A stretch of DNA of 64,000 nt from Thermoproteota archaeon (GTDB lineage: Archaea; Asgardarchaeota; Jordiarchaeia; Jordiarchaeales; Freyrarchaeaceae): the NCBI GenBank assembly GCA_029258835.1, contig JAPDJY010000006.1, positions 1 to 64,000 of the forward strand, written 5' to 3'. The stretch's first letter is position 1, and the number at the start of each line of letters is the position of its first letter. The translations under genes and the position numbers were made by a program. A model generated the notes under the pieces. It was not told the origin of the DNA. It made no database searches and saw nothing but the letters and a program-made list of their open reading frames with translations. Shown piece after piece: positions 1-15,092 of the stretch.

Positions 1-438
1 GTCGCATCTGCCAGAGTTTAAAGCCTCTAGGGCAGCCACCCTCTCAAGGTACTGACGTGAGATGGCCTCAATACGTTCCAAGTCCTCCTCCACAAGTCCA
101 ACCGCGGGTATACACTTAGCTATAACCCTAGGAGCGTAGACTAAAGGGTTGTCACACCTGAAAAAGACCGTTGCAGCCGAGGAAACAATAAGTGACAGGC
201 CGGCTCTCTCACTCCTATTTGACGACCCATCGACGCCTATGGTGAGTGCGTCCCTAGCAGCCGGGTTAACGTCCAGCTCGACCAGCTCAACGCTGCCCTC
301 AACGTTCTCCGCAGCCCTAATCATTGAAAGGTAAGTCTTGTAGAAGCGCTCCGCCTCGTCCCCCAGCATCCTCAATGCCTCATAGAAAAGTTGCCCATGG
401 CGCAGCTCTCTCTCCTCAAGTATTTTAAGAAGGTTCAA
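1..438 (-). CDS. nurA: NurA-family nuclease, N-terminal part (runs off the window edge)
   Basis: Not in the ORF track. TTG start overlaps the herA stop (TTGA). Open frame to position 1: MNLLKILEERELRHGQ...LTIGVDGSSNRSE...SRQYLERVAALEAL, with the NurA VDGS motif and a conserved R-x-x-L-E helix. Confidence 0.75.
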   Translation of the reverse strand, partial: MNLLKILEERELRHGQLFYEALRMLGDEAERFYKTYLSMIRAAENVEGSVELVELDVNPAARDALTIGVDGSSNRSERAGLSLIVSSAATVFFRCDNPLVYAPRVIAKCIPAVGLVEEDLERIEAISRQYLERVAALEALNSGRCD

Positions 439-2039
439 GCGTTTAATCCCTCCGCAAACTCCCTATGCAGCTCAAAAACGGTTTTCCGTCCATACCCTAG
501 TCTTATATCTCCCTTCTCTATAGCAACACATATAGGCTCCCTTATCGGGGTAGCCATCCCAGCCACTAGGAATTCGCCTACGCCGAGCCTAGGCAGGATC
601 CCCCTTATCTCTGGGAAATCAGTGTAGCTTTCAATAGCGCTCATGTCACTTGCAGCAGTAAGGCAGCCACAGAACAAAGTGTTAAGGTTAGAGAAGACAG
701 CCTTAGAAATACGTGATATCCGCTGGTTTATTATGGTAAGGTTCGCGCCAAACTTACGTCCCTCCTCCGAAAGACTGGTTATCTTCCCCAAGCAAAGGAA
801 GGGCTTCCCAACAATAACCTGAGAGTAAGCCCCACCAGTTTCAGGAATATAATTCTTCGCCTCGTCGATTATGAGGTGTATCGGGTACCGCATCCTCAAA
901 ATAAGATCTGCAATGGTTCCGAGCTTAGCCTGCCTAGCCTCAAGGGGATCCTGGGAAGCGTCTATGACAAGTATCCTGTTAGCAGCAAGCCTCCAAACCC
1001 TAGCGTAATCATTCACGCTACTGCCATTAAAGAATTCCGCCCCAAGAGTCCGGACACGCTTCTCAATGGCGCTACTCCACACCCTACTAGACTGATCCTT
1101 ACTGTAAAACTCGCTCAGCCAATCATTAACGTACCGCATGAACTCTTTAGCATTAAGCCCAACCTCGCCACACATGAAATCCATAACGAAAAGGTCGGAT
1201 GCAACCTCAACAGCCTTCCGAGCCTGCGAAGGCAAAACGTCAAGCTTAAGAAGCTTAACAAGACTCCCCGAGTCGGTGGGAATTACGGGAAGCTCACAAC
1301 TCTGAAGAACCTCAAACCTACCACAAAGCCTCTCAAGGTTCCCCGTCGCATATTCTCCAGTATGATCCCAAACAACAACGTTAATCTTATGCTTCAAAGA
1401 GGAAAGCCCAACAAGAAACTTAGCAGCAGTAACGCTCTTCCCCATCCCTATACGCGCGAAAATACCAACACCAAGCCTCAAAACAGCAGAAGCGTCAACC
1501 TCAACAGGATAATCAGTCTCCCTAATCCGCCCAACCTCAAAGTACTCATCCTCCCTCTCAGGGTCCTTAAAAAGCATCCTGTAATCATCCCTACCCGCAA
1601 CATAAACAGGGGAACAAGGCTTAGGAGGATGAGAAACACTCACAACACCAGGGCCAGCAGGCCTACCATAAATCCTCAACTCACCATACTTAAGGCTCTG
1701 CTCTAACTGAGGAATCTCACCATAAAGACTCGAAAAATAGTTCAGAACATCCGTGGTAGCCCCCCTAGTAGCAGCATTCAAACATGTAACAAGCCCAATA
1801 ATCCTCAAACCATCATGCCTAACAGTCAACAGCTGCCCCTCATAAACGTAGTCCGAAGCATAATCAAAAACCGCAAAACTACAAACCTTCGTACTCGTCG
1901 GACTAGTTATAAACCCAACAGGAGCCTCCCCTTTAAGGATCTCCTCCTCAGACCTTACATAATCATACTCCTCAACTTCTGAACTCTCAAAGGCACGCAG
2001 CAACACCGGATCAACATCCCCCACCAACGTGCAAACCAC
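435..2039 (-). CDS. herA: HerA-family helicase/ATPase (N-terminal HAS barrel, DUF87)
   Basis: Walker A ARIGMGKS, Walker B LIIDEA, EGRKFG and INQR motifs, N-terminal barrel ending in PPKPCSPVY. Confidence 0.85.
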   Translation of the reverse strand: MVCTLVGDVDPVLLRAFESSEVEEYDYVRSEEEILKGEAPVGFITSPTSTKVCSFAVFDYASDYVYEGQLLTVRHDGLRIIGLVTCLNAATRGATTDVLNYFSSLYGEIPQLEQSLKYGELRIYGRPAGPGVVSVSHPPKPCSPVYVAGRDDYRMLFKDPEREDEYFEVGRIRETDYPVEVDASAVLRLGVGIFARIGMGKSVTAAKFLVGLSSLKHKINVVVWDHTGEYATGNLERLCGRFEVLQSCELPVIPTDSGSLVKLLKLDVLPSQARKAVEVASDLFVMDFMCGEVGLNAKEFMRYVNDWLSEFYSKDQSSRVWSSAIEKRVRTLGAEFFNGSSVNDYARVWRLAANRILVIDASQDPLEARQAKLGTIADLILRMRYPIHLIIDEAKNYIPETGGAYSQVIVGKPFLCLGKITSLSEEGRKFGANLTIINQRISRISKAVFSNLNTLFCGCLTAASDMSAIESYTDFPEIRGILPRLGVGEFLVAGMATPIREPICVAIEKGDIRLGYGRKTVFELHREFAEGLNA

Positions 2040-2194
2040 CCCAAACCTCTAATCATACATGATCACTTAATGCTACACTTCAATTATAAATAATTTTCGA
2101 TCAAAAGGAAGGAAACCCTCCCACATAATATAAATATATGCCGTATTTTATGATAGAACTGTCTTATACATTTTATTTCTTTCTCGGTTACTAT

Positions 2195-2219
2195 TATGTG
2201 AAGGATATTCTTTCACATA
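2195..2219. promoter_or_regulatory. Inverted repeat in the divergent promoter between herA and the wHTH array; candidate operator
   Basis: TATGTGAA-N9-TTCACATA within an AT-rich 380 bp intergenic region. Confidence 0.4.
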
Positions 2220-2418
2220 TTCCTAAGATATACTGCGAAAGAATTTTCATCTAATCGGAAGGATAAATCTATTATAATATATAAGTGGAAGCGTTTATTC
2301 GTGATAGGATTACTCGTAAACCAACAAAAAATTTATAAAGCCCATGTGCTTTTATTTTCATAAAATAACTTCCAGTCGTTCAATTAGTATGGGAAAGATC
2401 AATGCGGGGTAATTTCTG

Positions 2419-2703
2419 TTGGAAGATGCTTTGAAGCTTATCGTAGATCTGGATAGGGCCAAGACGAGACTGGACGTCTTGAACGTTATTTTGGATCATG
2501 GGTCAGTGACTCCGTCGGAAGTTGCTGAGAAGCTTGGTTTAACCCAGAATGCTGTTAACATTGCCCTTCACTACCTTTCGAAGAGCGGTCTTGTGAGGAA
2601 GGTTGAGAGGGGGCGTTACGAAGCTAACTATGCTGTTTTCTGTAAGGCTCTTATCGCTCTTGCCATAAGGTTGAAGGACGTGTTGGGAGGTAGGATTGTA
2701 TGA
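2419..2703 (+). CDS. Small winged-helix protein, array member 1
   Basis: TPSEVAEKLGLTQNAVNIALHYLSKSGLV HTH followed by GRYEANY wing. Confidence 0.85.
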   Translation: MEDALKLIVDLDRAKTRLDVLNVILDHGSVTPSEVAEKLGLTQNAVNIALHYLSKSGLVRKVERGRYEANYAVFCKALIALAIRLKDVLGGRIV

Positions 2704-2972
2704 GTAAGCTTGGGGAAAGTGTTTTGAGGCTTCGAGGAGGAAGCCTTAAGGTTTTGTCTCTTTTAAGCGTGTCCACTAAGCCTCTTAGGCCTAGTGAGAT
2801 AGCTGAGCTTCTGGGTATGCCCTTGAAGGATGTTGGTAAATACCTTGTCCGGCTCTCCCAGAAGGGTTTGGTTTCAAAGGTTGAGGTTAACGGCTCTCCT
2901 TGTTACACTTCAAACTTAGACCTGCTTGAGTTAGTATTGGATCATGAAAGGCGGCTAAGGAACCTTGAGTAG
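2700..2972 (+). CDS. Small winged-helix protein, array member 2
   Basis: RPSEIAELLGMPLKDVGKYLVRLSQKGLV; ATGA overlap with member 1. Confidence 0.85.
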   Translation: MSKLGESVLRLRGGSLKVLSLLSVSTKPLRPSEIAELLGMPLKDVGKYLVRLSQKGLVSKVEVNGSPCYTSNLDLLELVLDHERRLRNLE

Positions 2973-2983
2973 AGGTTTTCTCT

Positions 2984-3289
2984 TTGAAGGTCGACTTTGA
3001 GGATTTTGAGGTGGCCTTCGAGAAGCTTCTTGGGTTGAGAGAAAGCTCCATGAAGGTTTTGCTTTACATTCTTGCTAAGGGCGGCTCTTCGACGCCTAAG
3101 GAGATCGTCGAGGAAACCGGTTTAAGCCAGAATAGTGTTTGGAAGGCTGTTAGGCGGCTTGAGGCTGCTAACCTTATAAGGTCTGTTGAGCGGGGAAGCT
3201 ACGAGGCGAACTATGGCTTCCTCTTAGCGCTTCTCCTCGTGAAGGTTCAGGAGCTCGCTAAAACGTTTAGGGGGGTGAGCGTTGAGTGA
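2984..3289 (+). CDS. Small winged-helix protein, array member 3
   Basis: TPKEIVEETGLSQNSVWKAVRRLEAANLI followed by GSYEANYGFL. Confidence 0.85.
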   Translation: MKVDFEDFEVAFEKLLGLRESSMKVLLYILAKGGSSTPKEIVEETGLSQNSVWKAVRRLEAANLIRSVERGSYEANYGFLLALLLVKVQELAKTFRGVSVE

Positions 3290-3584
3290 GAGGGTGGAGG
3301 GTGGCGCCAGAGCTGGTTTCGCGAAGTTCTTAAAGCTTGGGGAAGCGTCCATGAAGATAATTGAATACGTGCTGTGTTCTCGTACCCCGGTCACTCCGAA
3401 GGAGCTCGTAGAAAACTTAGGTCTTAGTGAGGGTGCTGTCTGGAACGCTCTCAGCAGACTTAGTAAAGCAGGTTTTCTGTTATCCACGGGGAGAGGCGAG
3501 TATGAGGCGAACTATGGTTACATAATCGCAATGGTTCTTTTTGCTCTCGCAGAACTTTTCGAGAAGAGAGGTAGGAGAAGATGA
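3282..3584 (+). CDS. Small winged-helix protein, array member 4
   Basis: TPKELVENLGLSEGAVWNALSRLSKAGFL followed by GEYEANYGYI. Confidence 0.85.
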   Translation: MSERVEGGARAGFAKFLKLGEASMKIIEYVLCSRTPVTPKELVENLGLSEGAVWNALSRLSKAGFLLSTGRGEYEANYGYIIAMVLFALAELFEKRGRRR

Positions 3585-3921
3585 GTGAGGATAGAAGGGT
3601 GAACCCAAGGGCTGTCCTATTCCGCTCTTATGATTTTGAAGGAAGGGTTCCTTGGCTCTTTCATACATCCTTAGAAGGCAGGAGGGTCTGTTCCACCATC
3701 TGAAATTCAGAAGGCTTTAGGAATGTCTCCCTCTAACCTTTCACATTCAGGACGGATCCTTGAAAAGCTCGGCTTGATAACACGGAAACCAGAAGGACCC
3801 CCAAACACGGGTGGTGATTAGCGCGCTTCTATCCATAGTCGTCGATCTCGTGAGGCGCGTTGAAGAACCGGAGCGAAACCTAGAGAAAAAGGTTCCTTTC
3901 ACTCTTAGGCTGGGAAAGTAG
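3581..3921 (+). pseudogene. Frameshifted fifth winged-helix paralogue
   Basis: ATGA overlap with member 4. Fragments in different frames: MSEDRRVNPRAVL / KAGGSVPPSEIQKALGMSPSNLSHSGRILEKLGLITRKPEG / VVISALLSIVVDLVRRVEE. Confidence 0.7.
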
Positions 3922-4003
3922 GATGCTTTAACATTGCACCATCAAGTTTGAAATAGGCGATTTTTAAAAACACTTATTTAATCACGTGGCAAAATTCAAA
4001 AGA

Positions 4004-4018
4004 TATAACACTGTTATA
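4004..4018. promoter_or_regulatory. Palindromic operator TATAACA-N-TGTTATA upstream of the cysteine synthase gene
   Basis: Perfect 7-1-7 palindrome 20 nt upstream of the ATG; identical arms recur at 10691-10705. Confidence 0.6.
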
Positions 4019-4037
4019 GAAATGGGAGGCGCTCGAG

Positions 4038-4955
4038 ATGAAGGTTGCCAATGACATTACCGAGCTCATAGGCGAAACTCCTATGGTCAAGCTAAGGAAG
4101 ATTACCGGGCCAAACGATGCAACGATTTATGCTAAGTTAGAATGGTATAACATTGGTGGATCTGTTAAAGGATAGAATGGCTCTTTACATTTTAGAGTAT
4201 GCAGAGGCTGCTGGAAGGCTGAAAAAAGATAAGGTGATCCTTGAAGCGACATCTGGTAATACTGGGATTGCCATAGCCATGATTGCAGCTGCGAAGGGGT
4301 ATAGGACTGCCATGGTTTTGCCTGAATCGGTGAGTGTGGAGAGAAGGAAAATTATAAAGGCGTATGGAGCAGGCTTGATTCTCTCGCCGGGTGAGAAGGG
4401 TACGTCCGGGGCTATAGAGTTAAAGCAGAAGTTGCTAAGGCGGAACCCGGGCAAGTACATTGATATTGACCAGTTTCGTGACCCGGCGAACATAATGGCC
4501 CACTATGAGACCACGGGGAAGGAGATACTTGAGCAAACTCGTGGATACGTGGATATGATCATCATTGGGATTGGGACGGCAGGGACAGGTGTAGGCGTCT
4601 CAATGAGGGTCAAACAGCGTAACCCCAATTAAAAATTGTAGGTGTAACCCCTAAGCTTGGCGTGAGCATTCAAGGACTCAGAAATCCGAACGAACCATGT
4701 CCAACTCAGCTTTTTAAGAGAATTCTTCGATGAAGTAGTCGAGATCTCGCGGGAGGAAGTGCCAAAAACGTTCGAGGTTGCAGAATGATCGCTCAGAAAG
4801 AAGGGCTGCTAATAGGGATGAGTTCTGCAGCGATCATGTACGTTGCTTTGAGGAAAGCTAAGCAGCTTGGTAGAGGAAAAGTTATAGTCGCCGTGCTGCC
4901 TGACAGCGGATTAAAGTACCTGAGCACGCCTCTCTTTTTAATTAATAATATTTAA
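4038..4955 (+). pseudogene. cysM: PLP-dependent cysteine synthase (CysK/CysM), several frameshifts
   Basis: MKVANDITELIGETPMVKL...GGSVK/DR broken at about 4168 beside the PLP lysine; EATSGNTG; GIGTAGT; further breaks after 4630; ends PDSGLKYLSTPLF. Confidence 0.85.
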
Positions 4956-4982
4956 TAAAGTAACTACTAATAATGGTGGTGT

Positions 4983-5321
4983 TTGGCTATGCGCCCTCCA
5001 TGTGAGATTATCGTACGTTACGTGCTTCCTGCCCTTCGCTCCCTAATCGCTAGAGAGCTTATTGAAAATTATGGTTTCTCGCAGGTGGTTGCCGCTAAAA
5101 AGCTTGGTATTACTCAAGCCGCGATAAGTTATTACTTATATTCTAAGCGTGGTGAAAAGTACTTAAAGAATATCGAATCCATAAGTGAAGTAAGGAAGAT
5201 CATAAAAGACATAGCTGACGAGATAGCTAATGAACGTCTGTCACCTAAGGATGTGATATCTAGGTTTTGCGGTCTTTGTTCACGGCTCCGCGCTGAACAC
5301 TTAATATGTACGCCTTCATAA
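4983..5321 (+). CDS. Archaeal HTH transcriptional regulator with conserved cysteines (COG2522-like)
   Basis: PPCEIIVRYVLPALR, SQVVAAKKLGITQAAISYYL, C-terminal FCGLC. Confidence 0.8.
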   Translation: MAMRPPCEIIVRYVLPALRSLIARELIENYGFSQVVAAKKLGITQAAISYYLYSKRGEKYLKNIESISEVRKIIKDIADEIANERLSPKDVISRFCGLCSRLRAEHLICTPS

Positions 5322-5420
5322 GGACGTTGCCATGCTACCGGATACCTGCGATCTGTGCAGCTAACCTGTCTACGAGTTGCTTTCCTGCTTTGCGTTGGGG
5401 GCGCTAACAGAATGGCCTGA

Positions 5421-5561
5421 TCATATCTGCCGTTTTAGCCATTGCTGCGTCCATCTTTTCAAGCATTTCTCGAAGCAAAACATGTATAGCTTGTTAACGC
5501 AACACGTCTTTCTCGTAACAGGTTTACCTGTAATGACTTTTCCACATACTTGGCACCGCAC
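5421..5561 (-). CDS. Small TRASH/YHS-like metal-binding protein (about 46 aa)
   Basis: GTG after a G-rich RBS; CQVCGKVI...TCC...FCFEKC. This is the plausible part of track ORF 5421..6116, whose remainder is antisense to thi4. Confidence 0.55.
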   Translation of the reverse strand: MRCQVCGKVITGKPVTRKTCCVNKLYMFCFEKCLKRWTQQWLKRQI

Positions 5562-5673
5562 TCTGTTTCCCCCTCCCCCTCTTAGGGAGTATCTTGCACA
5601 AAATTGCTTTTTATCTTTACAATAGTTAAGATTGTTAACACCTTCTACCCAACTCGCTGGGGTAGGTGGAAAA

Positions 5674-6452
5674 ATGAATAATGTAGAGTTTGGCGAGGCA
5701 GTAATTACGCAAGTTATTGTTGAAAACGCCGCAAGAGACTTAGTTAAACTATCTGAAGCTGACGTAGTCATAGTTGGTGCTGGTTCTGCAGGGTTAACAG
5801 CAGCCATGTACGTAGCTAGATCCGGGCTGAGAACTGTGGTGTTTGAACGGAAGCTTTCGTTTGGTGGAGGAATAGGCGGAGGCGGAATGTTTTTCCACAA
5901 GCTCGTTGTCCAATCGCCTGCAGACGAGATCCTAAGAGAGATCGGATGTCCCTTCGAGAAAGTGAGGGAGGGCTTATTCGTAGTTGACACTTCAGCTATG
6001 ATCGCGAAGCTTGCAAGCAGCGCCATAGATGCAGGTGCAAAAATAATCTTAGGTGTAACGGTGGATGACGTCATTTTTAGAGGGAGACGCCAGCCTAGAA
6101 TTGTAGGAGTAGTCATTCAGTGGACGTCCGTTATAATGTCTGGAATTCACGTTGATCCATTAGGCGTCAAGGCTAAGGCGGTTGTCGACTGTACAGGGCA
6201 TGACGCCGAAGTACTAGCTGTAGCATCGAGAAAAATCCCTGAACTAGACTTGCTCGTTGAGGGTGAAAAGTTCATGTGGACGGAGAGGCTGAAAGGCTTA
6301 CTGTAGATAATACAGGTGAGGTCTGCCCTGGATTATATGCTGCAGGAATGTCTGTTGCAGCTCCGTATCAAACCCCTAGGATGGGTCCTATTTTTGGAGG
6401 GATGCTGCTTAGCGGAAGGAGGGTCGCCCAAATAATTAATAAGGAAACTTAA
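5674..6452 (+). pseudogene. thi4: Sulfide-dependent (His-type) Thi4 thiazole synthase, frameshifted near 6285
   Basis: GAGSAG FAD motif, GGGIGGGG, GIHVDP, DCTGHDA; C-terminal [14 protein letters not shown] continues in another frame to TAA at 6452. Confidence 0.85.
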
Positions 6453-6526
6453 AGGCTCTTAACCTCTACTTCAACTAACTTTTTATTCTCCTGATGTAAC
6501 ATCTGTCTTGCTGTGTTCTGGTTAAG

Positions 6527-7336
6527 ATGGTGGATTACATGAATGCGAACGTGCTAAGCGTTAAAGTGGAGGTTAAAAGGGTCGACTTGAGTAGGGGCCG
6601 TGCCGAGCTCGTGAACGACCCTGTAGTCGTTGAGGCTCCTGTTAACCTTCATGTTAATAGGAGATACGTCGCCACACTGCTTGCGTTGCCTGACCAGCTA
6701 AAAGAGCTCTGTGTTGGATGGCTTCTCAGCCATGCAATAATAAAAAAGGTCGACGAGATCTTAAATATTCAGGTTAAGGGTAACCTTGTAAGGGTTAACT
6801 GTCTAGATGAGGTCGAGATGCGGTTAAGGGTTGCGAGTAGGGTTAGCGTCGTCCGCTCTTCGTGTGGTTCCTTAGCGGATGACTTCTATTTTTCAATTGA
6901 CCGTATAAGTAAACCCTTTGTTGCTTCAGATTATACGGTTAAAGCAGGGCAGCTCTTACGGTTTGTTAGCGTCCTTAACAGGAAATCTTCATTGTTCAGG
7001 TTGACTGGCGGAACCCATTCCGCAGCCCTGTTTCATGAAGGCGTTCTGGTAGCTTTCGCTGAGGACGTGGGTAGACATAACGCTGTTGACAAGGTGATTG
7101 GTAGCGCTGCTTTAAGGAGAACTGACTTTTCAAAGTGCGTCTTGGTGAGTAGTGGTAGGCAGCCGGCAGGTATGGTTCTAAAAGCGGCACGTGTGGGAAT
7201 CCCTATAGTGGCCTCCATTGCAGGCCCAATATATTCCGGGGTTGAGGCTGCCAGAAAGACCGGGGTTACGCTGGTCTGCTTTGTTAGAGGACGGAGAATG
7301 AACGTTTACAGCTTCCATGAAAGAGTCGTTCTTTAG
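6527..7336 (+). CDS. fdhD: Formate dehydrogenase accessory sulfurtransferase FdhD
   Basis: SSCG, TGGTHSAAL, EDVGRHNAVDKVIG, SSGR motifs. Confidence 0.92.
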   Translation: MVDYMNANVLSVKVEVKRVDLSRGRAELVNDPVVVEAPVNLHVNRRYVATLLALPDQLKELCVGWLLSHAIIKKVDEILNIQVKGNLVRVNCLDEVEMRLRVASRVSVVRSSCGSLADDFYFSIDRISKPFVASDYTVKAGQLLRFVSVLNRKSSLFRLTGGTHSAALFHEGVLVAFAEDVGRHNAVDKVIGSAALRRTDFSKCVLVSSGRQPAGMVLKAARVGIPIVASIAGPIYSGVEAARKTGVTLVCFVRGRRMNVYSFHERVVL

Positions 7337-7364
7337 GTTAGCCTAAAAACATTCAGCTTCTTTT

Positions 7365-7634
7365 TTAACGTAGGAGCTCATTTAGGATGCTCTCTACCTC
7401 GTCTCTACTTGCAACCTTCCTCACAACCATCTTACCAGTTTTATACAGGCGTATTATAGCATTCTTGAAGGATACGTCAAAAACCAGGTCTGACAGTGAT
7501 TTTTTAACTTCTCCCCGACTTAAGATTTTCTTCATAGCCTCCTCCTTCTTATCGTACTTTAATGTGGCGATAAAGTCCCTTTCTTCACCGCACGCCTCCT
7601 CAATGTGTGCAACATACTCTTTTACCGCAGATAT
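7365..7634 (-). CDS. Small hypothetical protein (about 89 aa) at the end of the iscS-iscU-sufS operon; apparent ATA start
   Basis: Open frame 12 nt after the sufS stop: ISAVKEYVAHIEEACGEE...IRLYKTGKMVVRKVASRDEVESILNELLR; TBP-like LYKTGKMVV signature; no in-frame canonical start until residue 34. Confidence 0.5.
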   Translation of the reverse strand: MSAVKEYVAHIEEACGEERDFIATLKYDKKEEAMKKILSRGEVKKSLSDLVFDVSFKNAIIRLYKTGKMVVRKVASRDEVESILNELLR

Positions 7635-7646
7635 TCTTAACCCCCT

Positions 7647-8873
7647 TCACGCTATTTCCTTCAAAACCTCTACCATGCGGTCAATCTCATCTTGCGTATT
7701 GTAAATGTAAAAGCTTGCTCTAACGGTTCCTTTTAATCCGAGCCTCTGGTGTAGTGGCTGCGCGCAGTGAAGCCCGCTTCTAACCATTATCCCAAATTGG
7801 TCAAGAAGCAAGGCTACGTCGTGATGGTTTACTCCACTAACATTAAACGGTATTATTCCGCCTCTTGCCTTCCTTACGGGCCCGTAAACTTCTACCTTTT
7901 CAATTTCCATAAGCCTTCTTAATGCGTACTCTGTTAATTCCTTCTCGTGTTTTTGTACGTTTTCCATTCCTAACCTTTTAAGGTATCTAATGGCTTCCAT
8001 GAGCCCAACCCCACCGCATATGTTTGCTGTTCCTGCTTCGAACTTCCACGGAAGCTCGTTCCATGTGACCTCGCATGCGCCCTCCCGCCAGTTATACCTT
8101 ACCTCCCTGATCATATCTCCTCCGCCAAGGAACGGCTCCATTTCGCTCAGAACATCTTCCTTACCGTATAGCACCCCTATTCCTGTTGGACCCAGCATTT
8201 TATGTCCGGAGAAGGCTAAGAAGTCAGCGTCTAGACTTTTAACATCTACTGGCATATGCGGAACCGACTGAGCTGCGTCAACCATACAGAGTGCATCGTT
8301 CTCATGGGCCAGTTTGGAGATCCTCTCCACATCATTTATTACCCCTGTAACATTGGACATCTGTGTCACGCAAATGATCCGGGTTTTACTAGTCACAGCT
8401 TGCTCTAGGCTGACATAGTTTAATGTTCCATCATCGTTAATTTGGGCGTATTTAACCCTTGCCCCCTTAATCTTCGAAATCATTTCCCATGGGACAATGT
8501 TGCTGTGGTGTTCCATTAGCGTCACAACTACTTCATCACCTTGCTTAAGCGTCCTTAACCCCCAAGAGTAGGCAACAAGGTTGATCGCCTCTGTCGTGTT
8601 CTTAACGAAAACAACCTCCTCAATCCCTTTTGCATTAATGAACTTCGCTACTTCCTCGTGTGCCTCCTCGTACAGTTCGGAAGCCTCTTGTGAAAGTGTG
8701 TGAACCGCCCTATGAATGTTAGCGTTATGCTCCTCGTAAAATCTTCTAATAACCTCTATTACCTGTCTTGGCCTCTGGGAGGTAGCCGCGTTATCAAAAT
8801 AAATCAACGGTTCACCCTCAATCTTCCTCTGAAAAATCGGAAAATCTTCTCTAACCTTATAGGGGTCAAACAT
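7647..8873 (-). CDS. sufS: SufS-type (group II) cysteine desulfurase
   Basis: YFDNAATSQRP, HANIHR, SGHKMLGP, RSGLHCAQP. Confidence 0.95.
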   Translation of the reverse strand: MFDPYKVREDFPIFQRKIEGEPLIYFDNAATSQRPRQVIEVIRRFYEEHNANIHRAVHTLSQEASELYEEAHEEVAKFINAKGIEEVVFVKNTTEAINLVAYSWGLRTLKQGDEVVVTLMEHHSNIVPWEMISKIKGARVKYAQINDDGTLNYVSLEQAVTSKTRIICVTQMSNVTGVINDVERISKLAHENDALCMVDAAQSVPHMPVDVKSLDADFLAFSGHKMLGPTGIGVLYGKEDVLSEMEPFLGGGDMIREVRYNWREGACEVTWNELPWKFEAGTANICGGVGLMEAIRYLKRLGMENVQKHEKELTEYALRRLMEIEKVEVYGPVRKARGGIIPFNVSGVNHHDVALLLDQFGIMVRSGLHCAQPLHQRLGLKGTVRASFYIYNTQDEIDRMVEVLKEIA

Positions 8874-9377
8874 TTATTTTCTCTCCTCCCCTCTGCTGAG
8901 TTTCTTGGAAAGAACTTTCGCTAACTCCTCCTCTTCCAGCGCCTGCCTTTCCTCAAAAGTTAACTCGTCAGGCAGCCAATCCGGCTTCTCACCTTTCTTC
9001 TTATAGTAAAAGCGTATAGCTCGCCTTAGAGCTCCTACAGCTAATACTCCACAGTGAAACTTTATTGAGGGAAGACCGCCAATCTCATCGGAAACCTGCT
9101 TCCATGATAGACCCCATGCATCCTTCAACTTTTTTCCTTTAACCATCTCCGTCAGAATGCTTGAAGTTGCAATGTTGGCTGCACACCCGTAACTTTCAAA
9201 GCTCGCCCTTTCAATCACATCGTGTTCATCGATCTTAAGGTAAAATGTTATCATGTCCCCACATGCTGGGTTACCGGCGACGGCGTGAACCGTTGCATCC
9301 TCCATCCTTCCAAGGTTCTTAGGGTTCCTAAACAATTCTAAGACTTTCGGACTGTAAGGAAGAGGCATCCTAGACAT
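8874..9377 (-). CDS. iscU: IscU/NifU-type Fe-S scaffold protein
   Basis: YSPKVLELFRNPKNLG, NPACGD, YGCAAN, KFHC; start reassigned to MSRM. Confidence 0.92.
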   Translation of the reverse strand: MSRMPLPYSPKVLELFRNPKNLGRMEDATVHAVAGNPACGDMITFYLKIDEHDVIERASFESYGCAANIATSSILTEMVKGKKLKDAWGLSWKQVSDEIGGLPSIKFHCGVLAVGALRRAIRFYYKKKGEKPDWLPDELTFEERQALEEEELAKVLSKKLSRGEERK

Positions 9378-10612
9378 TACCGGTTTCCCCCATAGACCCG
9401 TAAATACTCCGCAGCCTTCCAACAGCCTCCTCTATTGCATCAAGCACGTAACCCATATCACCATCGGTATGATACCGAGTGGTTTTCATTAAGATGCTGC
9501 CATGCGCCACCTCAAACTCTCTTCCAGTGGCTAAGAAGACATGGCTTGGTTGAAGTATCCTCCTAGTACACGCGCTTCCACTAGAAACATAAACCCCCTT
9601 TAAGCTTAACTCTATCGTTAACGCCTCCCCTTCACACCTGAGAAAGCTTACGTTAACATTGTCCGGCGCCCTTTTCTCCCCAAGCGGCCCATTTAGCCTG
9701 ACGTCGTCCACCCTGTTCAGGACTCCATTAATCAACTTATCCCTCATCCTTTTCACGTGTGCCACGTTCCTGTCAAAATTTCTGAATGCCTCTTCGGATG
9801 CTACAGTAAAGCCGACAATTAGAGGGGTGTTCTCAACGCCTGGCCATAACTTCTGCGTCCCGATTTGCCCCTCCAAGATTCTTTCCAGCTTAACGCCCTC
9901 CCTCACGTAAAGAGCCCCCACCCCTCTCGGGCCCAAAACCTTATAGCTGCTTATCGTCGCCAAGTCAACTTCCACCTTTCCTACATCAAACTTCACCCTG
10001 CCGTAAGCATCCGAGAGATCGGTGTGAAATACTGCTTCGGGGTTTTTGTCCTTCACCACCTCTAAGGCTTCTTTCACCGGTTCAACCGTTCCTATTTCGT
10101 TGTTGACCGCCATCACGCTGACCAGCAACGTTTCCTCGTCAACAGCCTCCTCCAACATTTCAATGCTAATGAAGCCCTCACCATCCACCGGTATCCTCAC
10201 CGTTTTAAAACCATACTTTTCAAGCGTCTGGCAAACGTGGATTATACTTAACGGCTCAATCTCGGAAATAACAATTTTCTTACCTTTCCTCCTTCCTCCA
10301 AAGCACGTTCCCATTAACGCCAAATTGTTGGCTTCGGTTTCCCCTGGAGTGAAATTTATTTCCTCCGGGTTTCTAGCACCTATAAAACCGGCTATCTTCT
10401 TCGCCGACTCCATAATGACGTCGTAAGCCTCCCATCCTAGCTTGTGGGTGAGCGTAGGGTTCCCATACGCCGTCCTGTTAAAGTAAGGTATCATGGCACT
10501 TACTACCTCATCCGGAACAGGACTTGCATTCTCGAAATCCAAGTAAACCTCTCTCTAACCCTGCATGGGCCTTAATTAGCTCTTTTACATCGCCTGTCAA
10601 TTCCACCACCAA
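9370..10612 (-). CDS. iscS: IscS/NifS-type cysteine desulfurase; N-terminus apparently frameshifted at about 10550
   Basis: VYLDFENA, YGNP, SSYKVLGPRG, SSGSACT; upstream VVELTGDVKELIKAH is out of frame across a GA repeat. Confidence 0.85.
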
Positions 10613-10690
10613 GCCGAGCGAAAAACCATTAAATTCGCTCTTCCATCTTCCTTTTTGACACTAATTAACATGTTTATCCTAATCGCAACT

Positions 10691-10705
10691 TATAACAATG
10701 TTATA
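10691..10705. promoter_or_regulatory. Palindromic operator TATAACA-N-TGTTATA upstream of iscS-iscU-sufS
   Basis: Same arms as 4004-4018. Confidence 0.6.
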
Positions 10706-10901
10706 ACTAGTGATTATAAACATTTTTGCAACATAAATATTCGCATGAGAAACTGTCATTGACTATTCATGGGGAACGTCCTCTCCTTAACAAGCCAGAC
10801 GTCTAACGCCGACTTAACGTTAAATGAACCCTAAGATGTTATATTAATATTTAAAATGAAGTTTGAATAATAAACACTTGCTTAGTGGAGGATAAGAACG
10901 T

Positions 10902-11530
10902 ATGGTTGATTTTACCCTTTCAGAGGAGCAAGCTGCTCTGCGTGAAAAAGCACGCAACTTCGCTCTTAATAAGGTGCTTCCTGTTGCTTCAAAATATGAT
11001 AAAACCGGCGAGTTTCCCGGCTCAGTGATAGAGAAGGCGCATAAGGAAGGTTCAGTCTTCATGTTGGCAATGATGACGTTCGTGCATACCCGCCCTGCAA
11101 TCGGCGCTATGGCGACAGTGCTCGTTAAGCAATGGAATACGTTATTAACTATGCTAAGCAACGGGGAGCCTTTGAACGTAAAATCTCAAGTTTTCAGGCT
11201 ATCCAACACATGATAGCTGACATGTATGTCCGCATTGAAGCTATGCGGCTGCTAACTTGGAAAGCCGCATGGCTTATTGATCATGGGGGTGAAGACGCTT
11301 TCATAGCTGCCAGCTGCGCCAAGCTCGTCGGGTCAGAGGATGCAATGAAAATAGTCACCGCCCTCCAAATCTACGGTGGCAGAGGATACTTGGAAAGCTG
11401 TCGCATTGCGAAGCTGTTTCGAGATGTAAAACTGTATCAGATACGTGAAGGAACCTCTCAAATCCAACGCCACATTATCTCACGCTACTTCTTCAGGGAG
11501 TACAAACCAACTATGAGAGGGTCTTACTAA
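10902..11530 (+). pseudogene. Acyl-CoA dehydrogenase remnant (large internal deletion plus frameshift)
   Basis: N-terminal DFTLSEEQAALREKARNFA joined directly to C-terminal YAKQR.AFERKISSFQAIQ, QIYGGRGY, RDVKLYQIREGTSQIQR. Confidence 0.85.
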
Positions 11531-11627
11531 AGCGAAGGCGCCCCGTCCCTCTTCTCAATGTGCCGTTTTCCAGAATCGGAAAGGAGAAATTCTCTTTTTT
11601 GTGTCGTTTAACTGTAATCCTCCTCTC

Positions 11628-12563
11628 TCATGGCATTTCTCTCAGAGTTAGTTCAAGAATGCGTCTTTCATTCCCGCGGAGAACGTCGACACGTACCGCC
11701 TCTCCCACCTTCCTCTTGTGGATCTCTCTAAGCAAGTCCTCAACGCTACGGATAACTACTCCATCCATGCGTAAGATTATGTCGCCTGGCTTTATCCCTG
11801 CCAATTGTGCCGGCCCCCCATCGACAACTCTCGTCACGAGCACTCCGTTTACAAGTGGCAAGCCGTATTGGCGTGCTATTCTCTCGGTGAGGCTTAAGCC
11901 TATTATGCCAATCCAAGGCTTCGCAGAGACCCTTTCCTGAATTATTTCCATAGAACACTTTTTAGCTAGGTTTATAGGAATAGCAAACCCTATTCCCTGG
12001 GCGAAGGGTACTATAGCCGTGTTTATCGCGACAACTTTTCCTTGGAGGTCTACTAGAGGGCCACCGCTATTACCTGGATTTATGGCGGCATCGGTTTGTA
12101 CGAGATTTTCTAACAGCTCTGTTTCAGCCTCTATAGTCCTGTTTAAGGCACTTATAACTCCTGAGGTCACCGTCGGCCCTCCAGCCAGCCCAAATGGGTT
12201 TCCAATAGCGTAAACTCTCTGTCCAACTCTCAACTTGTCAGAGTCCCCGAGTTCCGCTACAGGCAGCCCGTCTCTATCAACTTTTATAACTGCTATGTCA
12301 TGTACACCGCATGTTCCGACCAGTACCCCTTCCAGAACCTCTCCATTCCACAGCGTTACTGCTATCTTTCTTGCTCCCCTGACCACATGATTATTGGTTA
12401 AAATGTATCCTTTCGGATCAATTATAGTTCCAGAGCCAACACCCTTCACAGGGACAACCTGGTAAAACATATGATGAACAAGTCTGATCGTACTTATGTT
12501 CACAACACTTTTACTCACCTTCTCTAAAACATCAAGGACAGCATCTTCATCAAATGACGACAT
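11628..12563 (-). CDS. htrA: HtrA/DegP-like serine protease with one PDZ domain
   Basis: TNNHVV, HDIAVIK, DAAINPGNSGGPL, C-terminal PDZ. Confidence 0.93.
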   Translation of the reverse strand: MSSFDEDAVLDVLEKVSKSVVNISTIRLVHHMFYQVVPVKGVGSGTIIDPKGYILTNNHVVRGARKIAVTLWNGEVLEGVLVGTCGVHDIAVIKVDRDGLPVAELGDSDKLRVGQRVYAIGNPFGLAGGPTVTSGVISALNRTIEAETELLENLVQTDAAINPGNSGGPLVDLQGKVVAINTAIVPFAQGIGFAIPINLAKKCSMEIIQERVSAKPWIGIIGLSLTERIARQYGLPLVNGVLVTRVVDGGPAQLAGIKPGDIILRMDGVVIRSVEDLLREIHKRKVGEAVRVDVLRGNERRILELTLREMP

Positions 12564-12819
12564 TATAACACCTCCCCCCTTAAAGAACTAATTTCTCTAA
12601 AACGCTATTTATGGACCTTTCTATAAGAAAGGTGTAGCCTCCTCGCAACGCACCCAATCAACGACCACAACACTTTGAGGTTGAAAATGCAGCCATCGCC
12701 GCTCTTCACGTCACTTCCCATAGCTGCTACCGGCTGCCATTACGCTTCATCCCTGTTACTTTGATTTTAACCACTTAAAAAATGGGAGAGGAAGCATCCC
12801 CCGTCTTTCGATTGTTTCT

Positions 12820-14007
12820 CTACGTGAGCTCCTTGTGTTTCTCCTGTATTTCGTCGGCTAACCTATCTAGTTCTTTGAAGTCTCCATCCTTTGGACGCCC
12901 TTTTATAATGACGGGTTCAAGTAATTCTACCTTTAAGTTTGATAGTAGCCCTTTAATCTGTTCAAGCATTTTCCCTCCCCAACCGTAGGATCCGATCACC
13001 GACGCATACCTTAACTTCGGTCTTAATGCGTTTGCGAGGTAAACTGCATAAACGACTTTTGGGTGGGGACCTGTGAGGACGGTGGGCGACCCTACTACGA
13101 TCGTAGCCGCATCAACCAGCGCCATGGCAAGCTTTCCAATGTCCACCCTAGATAAGTCAAACCGCTTCACGGCCACCCCTCTCTCGATTAAGGCCCCTAC
13201 AAAGTAGTCAATCATTTCCTTGGTGCTGCCATGCATGGAGATGTAAGGTAGCACCACAATGTTTTTGGGTGGTGAGTAAACCCAGTCTTTATACGCTTCA
13301 AGTATGAGCTCTGGTTTATCATAGATCGGGCCATGACTTGGAGCTATAACGTCTATTTGCAGGTCCTTTATTTTCTCTAGGTTTTTCCGTATTGTATTCC
13401 TGAATGGCATCATTATCTCTGCGTAATATCTTTTAGCTGCTTCATGGATTGTTGCTTCATCACTCACGTATAAGTCTGAGGTTGCAAGGTGGGATCCAAA
13501 CAGGTCACATGTGAAAAGTATCTTATCCTCTACCAAGTACGTGAGCATAGTCTCAGGCCAGTGAACCCATGGAGCATGAATAAACCTTAATGTTCTATCT
13601 CCTAATGATACTTCCTCACGATCTTCAACGGTCCTAATCCTGTCCTCAGGGACTAGAAGCAACTCCATAAGTAAGTTCTTACATTTAGGTGTTGCAATAA
13701 CTATGGCATCTGGGTACGCCTCCAATATTTGAGGTAATGTGCCTGAATGATCCTGCTCCGCATGATTCACGACGACATAATCTATTTTTCTAACATTCAA
13801 CTCTTCTAATTGTGTTATCAACACATTGCTCATAGTCGGGTCAACAGTGTCTATTAACGCCGTCTTCTCACTTCCTTTAACTACGTATGCATTGTAGCTT
13901 GTCCCGTCGGGCAACGGGATTAGCTCGTCGAAAAGCCTCCTATCCCAATCTATAGCACCAACCCAGTAAACTCCCTTCCTTACCTCTCTAGGCTTCACAT
14001 TAATCAC
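12820..14007 (-). CDS. fprA: Flavodiiron protein FprA
   Basis: [32 protein letters not shown], flavodoxin GSYGWG. Confidence 0.95.
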
Positions 14008-14165
14008 TCCTCTTTTTCAAACTGGTCCTTTGACGCCCCGCATACGGGACAGACCCAGTCATCCGGCAACTCCTCAAATGGCGTTCCCGGATCCACCCCG
14101 GAGTCAGGGTCACCTTTCTCCGGGTCATACACGTATCCACAAACCGTACACACCCACTTTGCCAA
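14004..14165 (-). CDS. rub: Rubredoxin (53 aa)
   Basis: Not in the ORF track: [53 protein letters not shown]; GGAGG RBS. Confidence 0.97.
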
Positions 14166-14735
14166 CAAAATACCTCCATTTCAGTGTAGAGTCGCATTAA
14201 ATAAGTTAACAGTCGTTTATTTTATATACTTTCGCATTCTCTCAAGCTCATAGAGGCTCCTTTTTTACGTGTCAACCTTCACCAGAGCGGAGTGGTTAAA
14301 CATGACACGACACTATGTGAAGAAGTGAAGACGTGCTCACAGTCAGAGAAGAGGAGAAGAGATTACTGGTTGAGAAACTGAACGCTAGGCGAGGTCTTCA
14401 ACGCTTCTAAGAGACGAATGCGGATCCCTGGCAAGTTTAAAGGCGAATGGATGGATGAACCAAAAGGAAAGCCAAACCTCATTAATCTATAAGATTCTTC
14501 ATGGTTTCCTTCTTCAGCAACTTTTCTATTAACGCCTACGTGAGAATGACAAATCCGAAGCCCTTTCTCCTAGTAATACTGTTTAAGTGGTGATTTTCCT
14601 CGTTGACCGTCCCCCTTTACTCGTCTCAAACCCCAGCCTTATTTTCCTCTATTCGCATGTTTTAGATTCTTACCTAAAATTTAAAAATCAAAATCTCTTT
14701 CCATTGAATAAGCCATTTTCGGTAGGGTTTTAACT

Positions 14736-15092
14736 ATGAGCTTCGATGTGAAGGCTCATTCGAAGAACGATGGGAAAAAAGTTGCTGACGTGGTGAGGCG
14801 CTTACTGGACCCCCGATCGAAAACCATGTACTCGATAATTGAGACCCTCCTAGACGAGTTTAAAGGGAGTGCTGTCCCTGCCTCGGTGGTCAGAAGCAAA
14901 CTGGGCCTCCCAAAGCAGGCTGTTACTAACTCTGCTAGGAGGCTCGAGGAGGAAGGAATAATAGTTAGGACAAAGGATGGTTACGCTCTTAATTACGGTT
15001 TCCTCATTAAAGTATTACTACATGCAGTGGCCGATCTCTCCAAACGTTTAGAGGCCATTGAGAGGCAAGTTACTAAGACGTCTGCTGTATGA
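14736..15092 (+). CDS. Winged-helix protein, sixth paralogue of the 2419-3921 array
   Basis: PASVVRSKLGLPKQAVTNSARRLEEEGII, GYALNYGFL, coiled-coil tail. Confidence 0.8.
   Translation: MSFDVKAHSKNDGKKVADVVRRLLDPRSKTMYSIIETLLDEFKGSAVPASVVRSKLGLPKQAVTNSARRLEEEGIIVRTKDGYALNYGFLIKVLLHAVADLSKRLEAIERQVTKTSAV

Follow-up and report, generated by a model that had tools for sequence, protein, structure and literature searches.

A winged-helix gene array and the extra HerA–NurA operon that it faces are conserved together in Jordarchaeia, a class of Asgard archaea

The window analysed here, which covers the initial 64 kb of contig C5 in a metagenome-assembled genome (MAG) from the Asgard archaeal class Jordarchaeia (2.7 Mb in 91 contigs, completeness 94.7%, contamination 6%), opens with a nurA–herA operon that lies back to back with an array of small winged-helix genes (w1 to w5) across a shared control region. 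HerA–NurA is the archaeal DNA-end-resection engine, and the pair found here is an extra one, distinct from the housekeeping repair pair of the same genome. Comparison of relatives established, at the level of gene order and sequence divergence, that the pair and the array are conserved together as a class-specific module. A preliminary description of this DNA had not recognised the arrangement as a described system, and literature searches likewise yielded no description of a winged-helix array facing HerA–NurA. The most economical reading, to which we assign a probability of roughly 55%, is that the array constitutes a dedicated regulator and/or DNA-targeting set of the extra HerA–NurA machine, including, where it is encoded, a third protein that we call X.

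Layout of the locus

On the minus strand, nurA is cut by the contig start, leaving its N-terminal 146 codons (1..438, with motif I present as GVDGS), and the remaining 219 codons lie at the end of another contig of the same genome (C72:6629-7288). The herA-like hexameric-ATPase gene (435..2039, minus strand, 534 aa) overlaps nurA by 4 nt. An AT-rich control region of 379 nt (2040..2418; 30% GC versus 47–53% in the flanks) separates it from the array on the plus strand, which comprises w1 (2419..2703), encoding an ArsR/MarR-type winged-helix protein of 94 aa, w2 (2700..2972, 90 aa), w3 (2984..3289, 101 aa), w4 (3282..3584, 100 aa), a sister paralogue of w3, and a w5 pseudogene (3581..3921). The four successive junctions from w1 to w5 measure -4, +11, -8 and -4 nt. 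A displaced sixth member, w6 (14736..15092, plus strand, 118 aa), is found 11 kb from the array. We re-derived every coordinate that the preliminary description had given for nurA, herA, w1 to w4 and the broken fifth gene, and also recovered the AT-rich region common to herA and the array in a divergent layout, as well as the G-x-Y-E-A-N-Y wing motif in w1, w3 and w4; this motif is absent from w2.

The HerA–NurA pair is probably active and distinct from the repair pair

The HerA-like protein matched Pfam DUF87 (PF01935) with 46.4 bits against a cut-off of 23.2, its orthologues likewise scored above the cut-off, and its Walker A (G-x-G-K-S-x-T) and Walker B (D-E-A) motifs were invariant in four members of its clade, including one with 39% identity. 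The N-terminal HAS barrel had no Pfam match, and the NCBIfam model HerA_Thermprot aligned residues 62–238 to model positions 20–188, far below its cut-off. Full-length NurA orthologues matched Pfam NurA (PF09376) with 36–43 bits (cut-off 21). The 146-aa fragment in the window, having no Pfam match by itself, was 75–79% identical to the N-termini of orthologues of 410–418 aa, which scored 41–43 bits. The catalytic motifs of NurA are I (xDG), II (LDG) and III (AH), as set out in a 2026 review (PMC13748450). In an alignment that included canonical NurA proteins, D91-G92, E153, D172-G173 and A361-H362 were invariant; the D-G of motif I and the conserved Glu fall in the window fragment, and motifs II and III were kept in the full-length orthologues. 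Because the HerA Walker motifs are invariant and NurA motifs I–III are retained, the pair is probably enzymatically active.

The preliminary description had suspected a secondary HerA–NurA pair, and this was borne out in two ways. A complete nurA-herA-mre11-rad50 operon is present on contig C17 of the same genome, and in the HerA tree the clade of the window, which is almost restricted to Jordarchaeia, received 100/100 support on a long stem and was separate from the mre11/rad50-linked clade that holds the C17 copy and its orthologues. Neither mre11 nor rad50 was found at the winged-helix-linked herA locus in any of the three lineages that carry it. The locus resembles the canonical HerA–NurA end-resection complex (herA-mre11-rad50-nurA; Sulfolobus, Pyrococcus, Thermococcus) in the overlap of herA with nurA and in the retained Walker and NurA motifs, while it differs in the missing mre11 and rad50, in the low identity of its HerA to canonical HerA (~25%), in its separate clade and in the attachment of X and of a divergently oriented winged-helix array.

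Counting a copy on contig C9, the genome has five HerA-type genes. A second nurA–herA pair, on contig C2, has orthologues across many Asgard families, and the divergent HerA paralogues that group loosely with the clade of the window (on C9 of the same genome, and in G029 and G039) had no winged-helix arrays nearby. A third HerA of the genome is paired with a 509-aa protein without a Pfam family; the second pair and this third HerA were recorded at L028:4326-7070 and L029:5677-8701.

The two operons are inherited together

On all 12 inspected contigs that had both sides of the locus assembled, drawn from three lineages, nurA–herA stood back to back with the array. HerA orthologues were 84–85% identical in three of the four genomes of the same family (the fourth contributed a w2 fragment at a contig edge). 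Identity was 70–72% in all six sister-family (Freyarchaeia) genomes and 60% for a MAG contig that bears the label Heimdallarchaeota and represents the deepest lineage; a Logan contig has the same layout. Each of the 10 Jordarchaeia relatives searched carried a w2 orthologue (one as a contig-edge fragment), and about 24 clusters of the w2 type were recorded, whereas neither w2 orthologues nor this HerA clade occurred in any of the 30 other Asgard genomes searched. Scans of genome contigs and metagenomes with the HerA alignment returned loci of the Jordarchaeia/Freyarchaeia type only, and the 39%-identical HerA, labelled ‘Korarchaeota’, was a singleton on a 5.4-kb contig ending at herA. Within 16-kb neighbourhoods, no gene outside the block was common to the two families and the flanks consisted of unrelated metabolic genes. 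The association of array and herA–nurA, which the preliminary description had read from a single locus, was therefore seen wherever the locus was assembled, with its flanks reshuffled, and the recurrence of the entire block in relatives puts the arrangement far beyond chance.

Phylogenetic analysis of 44 array proteins resolved well-supported orthogroups for w1 (8 rows, support 96/86), w2, w3+w4 (one starred clade of 14 rows), w5 and w6 (starred), plus an additional w0 specific to the deepest lineage. That lineage has one gene in place of w3 and w4, which falls with w4, and the tree points to w3/w4 as a later duplication. Since the position in the array matches the orthogroup in the tree, the order of the array predates the lineage split. 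Pairwise dN/dS was 0.03–0.15 for herA, nurA, X and every w gene (w1 0.09–0.14; w2 0.03–0.14), with w2 being the most conserved member (77–91% identity across two families). Taken across these genomes, the comparison shows that the paralogues stay in fixed order and experience strong purifying selection and that the two operons are passed on as one unit, and the phylogenetic distribution marks the module as specific to Jordarchaeia and vertically inherited. In the deepest lineage, we also noted a 63-codon open reading frame (ORF) within the control region (L036:8606-8797) that has two CxxC pairs and is zinc-ribbon-like, below Pfam thresholds, as well as a 205-aa gene without a family 3' of w6 (L036:5081-5698), a position that in L045 is occupied by a 62-codon ORF truncated at the contig edge.

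This pattern of inheritance bears on a role in defence or conflict, in which HerA–NurA(–X) would act as a DNA-degrading effector against mobile elements and would be silenced or triggered by the winged-helix proteins, much as defence islands have winged-helix regulators. The top profile matches of HerA were indeed PADLOC defence-type HerA models (5e-23, partial), the NCBIfam anti-phage HerA models scored about equally to the repair HerA models, and the w proteins matched AbiEi and the winged helix-turn-helix (wHTH) parts of Csa3/CasR; NurA matched none of the PADLOC models, and the matches led to no system-level PADLOC assignment. As in anti-phage and CRISPR-associated systems (SIR2–HerA, DUF4297–HerA, Cas HerA/NurA with Csa3), a non-housekeeping HerA is combined with a nuclease, and the wHTH protein Csa3 is found near the CRISPR-linked pairs, which are known from Thermoproteales (PMC3396285, PMC3973734). 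However, the module was present in all Jordarchaeia relatives searched and behaves as a core, vertically inherited and slowly evolving element of one class (dN/dS as given above), unlike the usual patchy defence genes. Its flanks are metabolic and free of cas, integrase and further defence genes, and its wHTH proteins have no CARF or other sensor domain. We consider a role in defence unlikely.

The array encodes general winged-helix proteins with ArsR-like topology

Above the Pfam cut-offs, w1 matched MarR_2 (37.6 bits) and HTH_24 (29.2 bits), w2 matched HTH_IclR (25.7 bits), w3 matched HTH_24 (34.3 bits) as well as MarR_2, and w4 matched HTH_11 (29.5 bits) as well as HTH_24. An AlphaFold2 model of w3, built from a 44-sequence family alignment (pLDDT 90), comprises helices a1-a2-a3, a recognition helix aR, a beta-hairpin wing and a long C-terminal helix a5. 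The structures closest to this model were of the ArsR type (2oqg with a TM-score of 0.75, then 6j05 and 3f6o), with further matches to TFE-alpha, the Lrs14-like ST1889 and the centromere-binding AspA, and the family profile matched TFE, IclR, MJ223, ST1889 (Lrs14-like) and ArsR/CzrA among PDB sequences. The w proteins are comparable to ArsR/SmtB repressors in arranging a1-a2-a3-aR, wing and a5 within about 100 aa. They differ from them in that HTH_5 (PF01022) stayed just under its cut-off (17–21 bits versus 22), in that no metal-site motifs were evident in the w proteins, and in that six fixed paralogues form one array here while ArsR/SmtB is a single autoregulated gene. The metalloregulator model NF033788 (HTH_metalloreg) also remained below threshold (16–32 bits versus 55), as did the NCBIfam Lrs14 model NF040939 (19.9–23.7 bits versus a cut-off of 90). 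Because the curated ArsR and Lrs14 models were under threshold, we file the w proteins under the general wHTH clan alone, as members with a modelled ArsR-like topology. In each orthogroup the recognition helix is distinct and conserved.

An alternative role for the array would be a genome-wide one, its products being nucleoid-associated proteins or global transcription factors like Lrs14, Sta1 or TrmBL2 that have no tie to herA beyond a common bidirectional control region. In favour of this, the proteins are small and highly conserved, and they weakly matched the NCBIfam models for Lrs14, Sta1 and MreA as well as ST1889, Lrs14-like and TrmBL2 structures. With the Lrs14/Sta1 proteins of Sulfolobales (ST1889 2d1h, 6cmv) they share their size, a wHTH domain with a C-terminal helix and the presence of several paralogues per genome. 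In contrast, the Lrs14 paralogues of Sulfolobales are dispersed in the genome, whereas those described here form a fixed-order array that never parts from herA–nurA though all other neighbours change. In addition, the Lrs14 model score (20–24 bits) is far from its cut-off, an operator-like motif is restricted to this one region (see below), and histones are generally reported as encoded by Asgard archaea. The isoelectric points (pI) of the w proteins range from 4.6 to 9.8, with several acidic members (4.6–5.7), often w5 and w6. The chromatin-like role that the preliminary description had entertained is unlikely because several members are acidic. Overall, a global nucleoid role is improbable and, like a defence role, less likely than one dedicated to the locus.

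The shared control region contains paired inverted-repeat modules

The control region contains blocks that are conserved within the family, and TATA-like boxes are located at about 2084–2093 on the herA side and about 2332–2338 on the array side. Two inverted-repeat modules were identified in the region. Module A (2117..2157) consists of a TATA-like box flanked by the arms CCTATCA and TGATAG(G), which are separated by 26 nt; its left arm is degenerate here. Module B (2268..2308) has the same architecture, again with a degenerate left arm and with an intact right arm (GTGATAGGA). In both families (Jordarchaeales and Freyarchaeia), CCTATCA-N26-TGATAG occurs twice per control region, the Freyarchaeia version (L015:9862-10396) being better preserved than that of the window. 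G001, G004, G006 (a complete genome) and G009 had the pattern nowhere but in this intergenic region, while in G008 it was found in the intergenic region and at three other sites without the AT-rich spacer; a reversed control pattern gave no hits across the same genomes. A genome-wide module search in the window's own genome gave 11 loose matches compared to 9–14 in shuffles, and therefore no regulon signal. The near-confinement of the modules to the shared control region points to a regulatory role for the array in binding an operator, locally at the least, and we infer that they form a putative operator read by DNA-binding proteins encoded at the locus. This tempers the proposal of the preliminary description that the array makes a complex rather than independent regulators.

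An Rfam scan of positions 1900–4100 gave no match near threshold. Direct repeats of the GGAAGGA(T)A type were noted at 2108–2116, 2200–2207 and 2258–2265, with counterparts just left of each module in relatives, and could be a second binding motif. A marine-sediment metatranscriptome (X18) contained two exact contigs, covering 2060–2295 and 2421–2661 (control region and w1), at a depth of 2, which hints weakly at transcription but is too little to claim expression.

Decay of w5 and displacement of w6

The fifth gene carries at least three frame changes and is orthologous to w5 genes of 107–129 aa that are intact in relatives (G001, G004, G006, L047, L036 and L045). An independent metagenome run (X2, depth ~40–50) was identical to the window over 3623–3725, a segment spanning two of the w5 breaks, and an extra 1-nt deletion at 3763 was present both in X2 and in a contig of run X3. 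Because independent metagenome runs carry the same breaks, w5 is a real pseudogene in a natural population and not an assembly error. In G008 and G009, w5 is reduced to a remnant of 28–34 codons. The gene has decayed independently at least twice, in the window species and in G008/G009, and therefore not every member of the array is essential.

The displaced w6 is 51% identical to the w6 of Freyarchaeia, which adjoins the array there. As the deeper lineage, like Freyarchaeia, keeps w6 next to the array, the family of the window has either taken up an inserted block or seen its array split. The 11 kb between w5 and w6 (3585–14735) hold sulfur and Fe-S metabolism genes (cysK, thi4, sufS/iscS/iscU-like and others), of which the cysK-like (4038–4960) and thi4-like (5632–6452) genes are each split by frameshifts in the window. 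With indels at 4167, 4629, 4716, 4780, 6284 and 6438, runs X2 and X3 both lack these frameshifts, and the cysK and thi4 breaks, unlike those of w5, are therefore either strain-specific or derived from the low-coverage (~6x) assembly.

A third gene of the herA operon

Directly 3' of nurA, Jordarchaeales and Freyarchaeia (two of the three lineages) carry a gene of ~295–305 codons, X, located in the same genome as the window at C72:5734-6627 (L035), with orthologues at L014:5147-6064 and L015:5844-6734. The versions of the two families are 37% identical. X has no Pfam family, a profile search of 1.84 billion representatives returned just three significant clusters, and an Atlas feature search with X gave none above 0.84. 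The structure predicted from an 8-row alignment was unusable overall (pLDDT 45). A stretch at ~131–192 was predicted as winged-helix-like (H-H-H-beta-beta) at pLDDT 56–83, so that X may contain such an element, while an hhalign comparison of X with the w family was non-significant (probability 3.5%).

Discussion

In the reading that we favour, the first operon would provide an extra HerA motor and NurA nuclease, both predicted to be catalytically competent, together with the orphan ~300-aa X in two of three lineages. The second operon would provide five to six ArsR/MarR-type winged-helix proteins that diverged anciently and whose recognition helices are individually conserved. The dimer interface of the ArsR family is formed by a1 and a5, and the w proteins would dimerise in the same fashion, as homodimers or as mixed dimers. 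Their DNA-binding sites would include at least the two inverted-repeat modules bracketing the TATA-like boxes, and binding there would set the expression of both operons; possibly, the proteins would also steer HerA–NurA(–X) to particular DNA. The machine itself would translocate along and degrade DNA ends like canonical HerA–NurA. A functional analogy for the targeting part is offered by FtsK, an FtsK–HerA superfamily motor that is guided by its winged-helix gamma domain reading KOPS. The likeness would lie in a motor of this superfamily being guided by winged-helix DNA readers, and the difference is that the winged helix of FtsK is fused to the motor, with no nuclease, while the readers here are separate genes.

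Several observations weigh against a dedicated regulator or targeting set. Six regulators for one small operon are unparsimonious, and w5 was lost at least twice. In the family of the window, w6 is unlinked, at a distance of 11 kb and with no inverted-repeat module upstream, and the left arms of the modules are degenerate in the window's own genome. In the deepest lineage, X is absent beside nurA, no comparable inverted repeat was found in the control region, and the start/stop overlaps are not kept, with gaps of 19–251 nt between members. The overlapping, coupled genes on which the preliminary description had relied are real in the window, and genes overlap or nearly abut in Jordarchaeales and Freyarchaeia, but this feature does not extend to the deepest lineage.

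Some of these observations also count against a stoichiometric hetero-oligomer, the kind of complex that the preliminary description had preferred, in which the six paralogues would join via their C-terminal helices and dock on, or load, the HerA hexamer or the NurA dimer for site recognition, following a logic like that of the FtsK gamma domain on KOPS. Such an assembly would be in line with six fixed-order orthogroups that each keep a distinct and conserved recognition helix, with overlapping or nearly abutting genes in two lineages, and with w2 being more conserved between families (77%) than HerA (70–72%). The operator half-sites are also 33 bp apart, which is beyond the usual span of a single wHTH dimer. 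On the other hand, w5 decayed independently in two lineages with the other members intact, members are separated by gaps of 75–251 nt in the deepest lineage and w6 is unlinked in the family of the window, and the number of members varies by lineage (an extra w0, and w3/w4 as one gene). A complex prediction with w1, w2, w3 and w4, each entered as an alignment, gave scores of 0.03 and 0.02 against a mark of 0.32 and is evidence neither way. We regard such an oligomer as doubtful, and hold the same low expectation for its fullest form, in which the six paralogues would make a sequence-reading assembly coupled to the HerA hexamer and the NurA dimer with X as adaptor. If true, this assembly would serve a motor-nuclease as a programmable head for targeting DNA, and machines of this type are not known to have been described in archaea.

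Irrespective of how the array acts, no Asgard NurA has been characterised experimentally, and the four NurA paralogues of Freyarchaeum were left unexplained (PMC13748450). The locus described here places one of these paralogues in a context, namely that of a core, class-wide module with six specialised DNA readers, an orphan protein X and a control element of its own. Should the readers regulate or guide the machine, as in the dedicated role favoured here, the module would be a tractable example of how specificity is given to a generic motor-nuclease, and it offers a defined protein set and a putative operator of ~40 bp for direct biochemistry in a lineage close to the eukaryotic stem.

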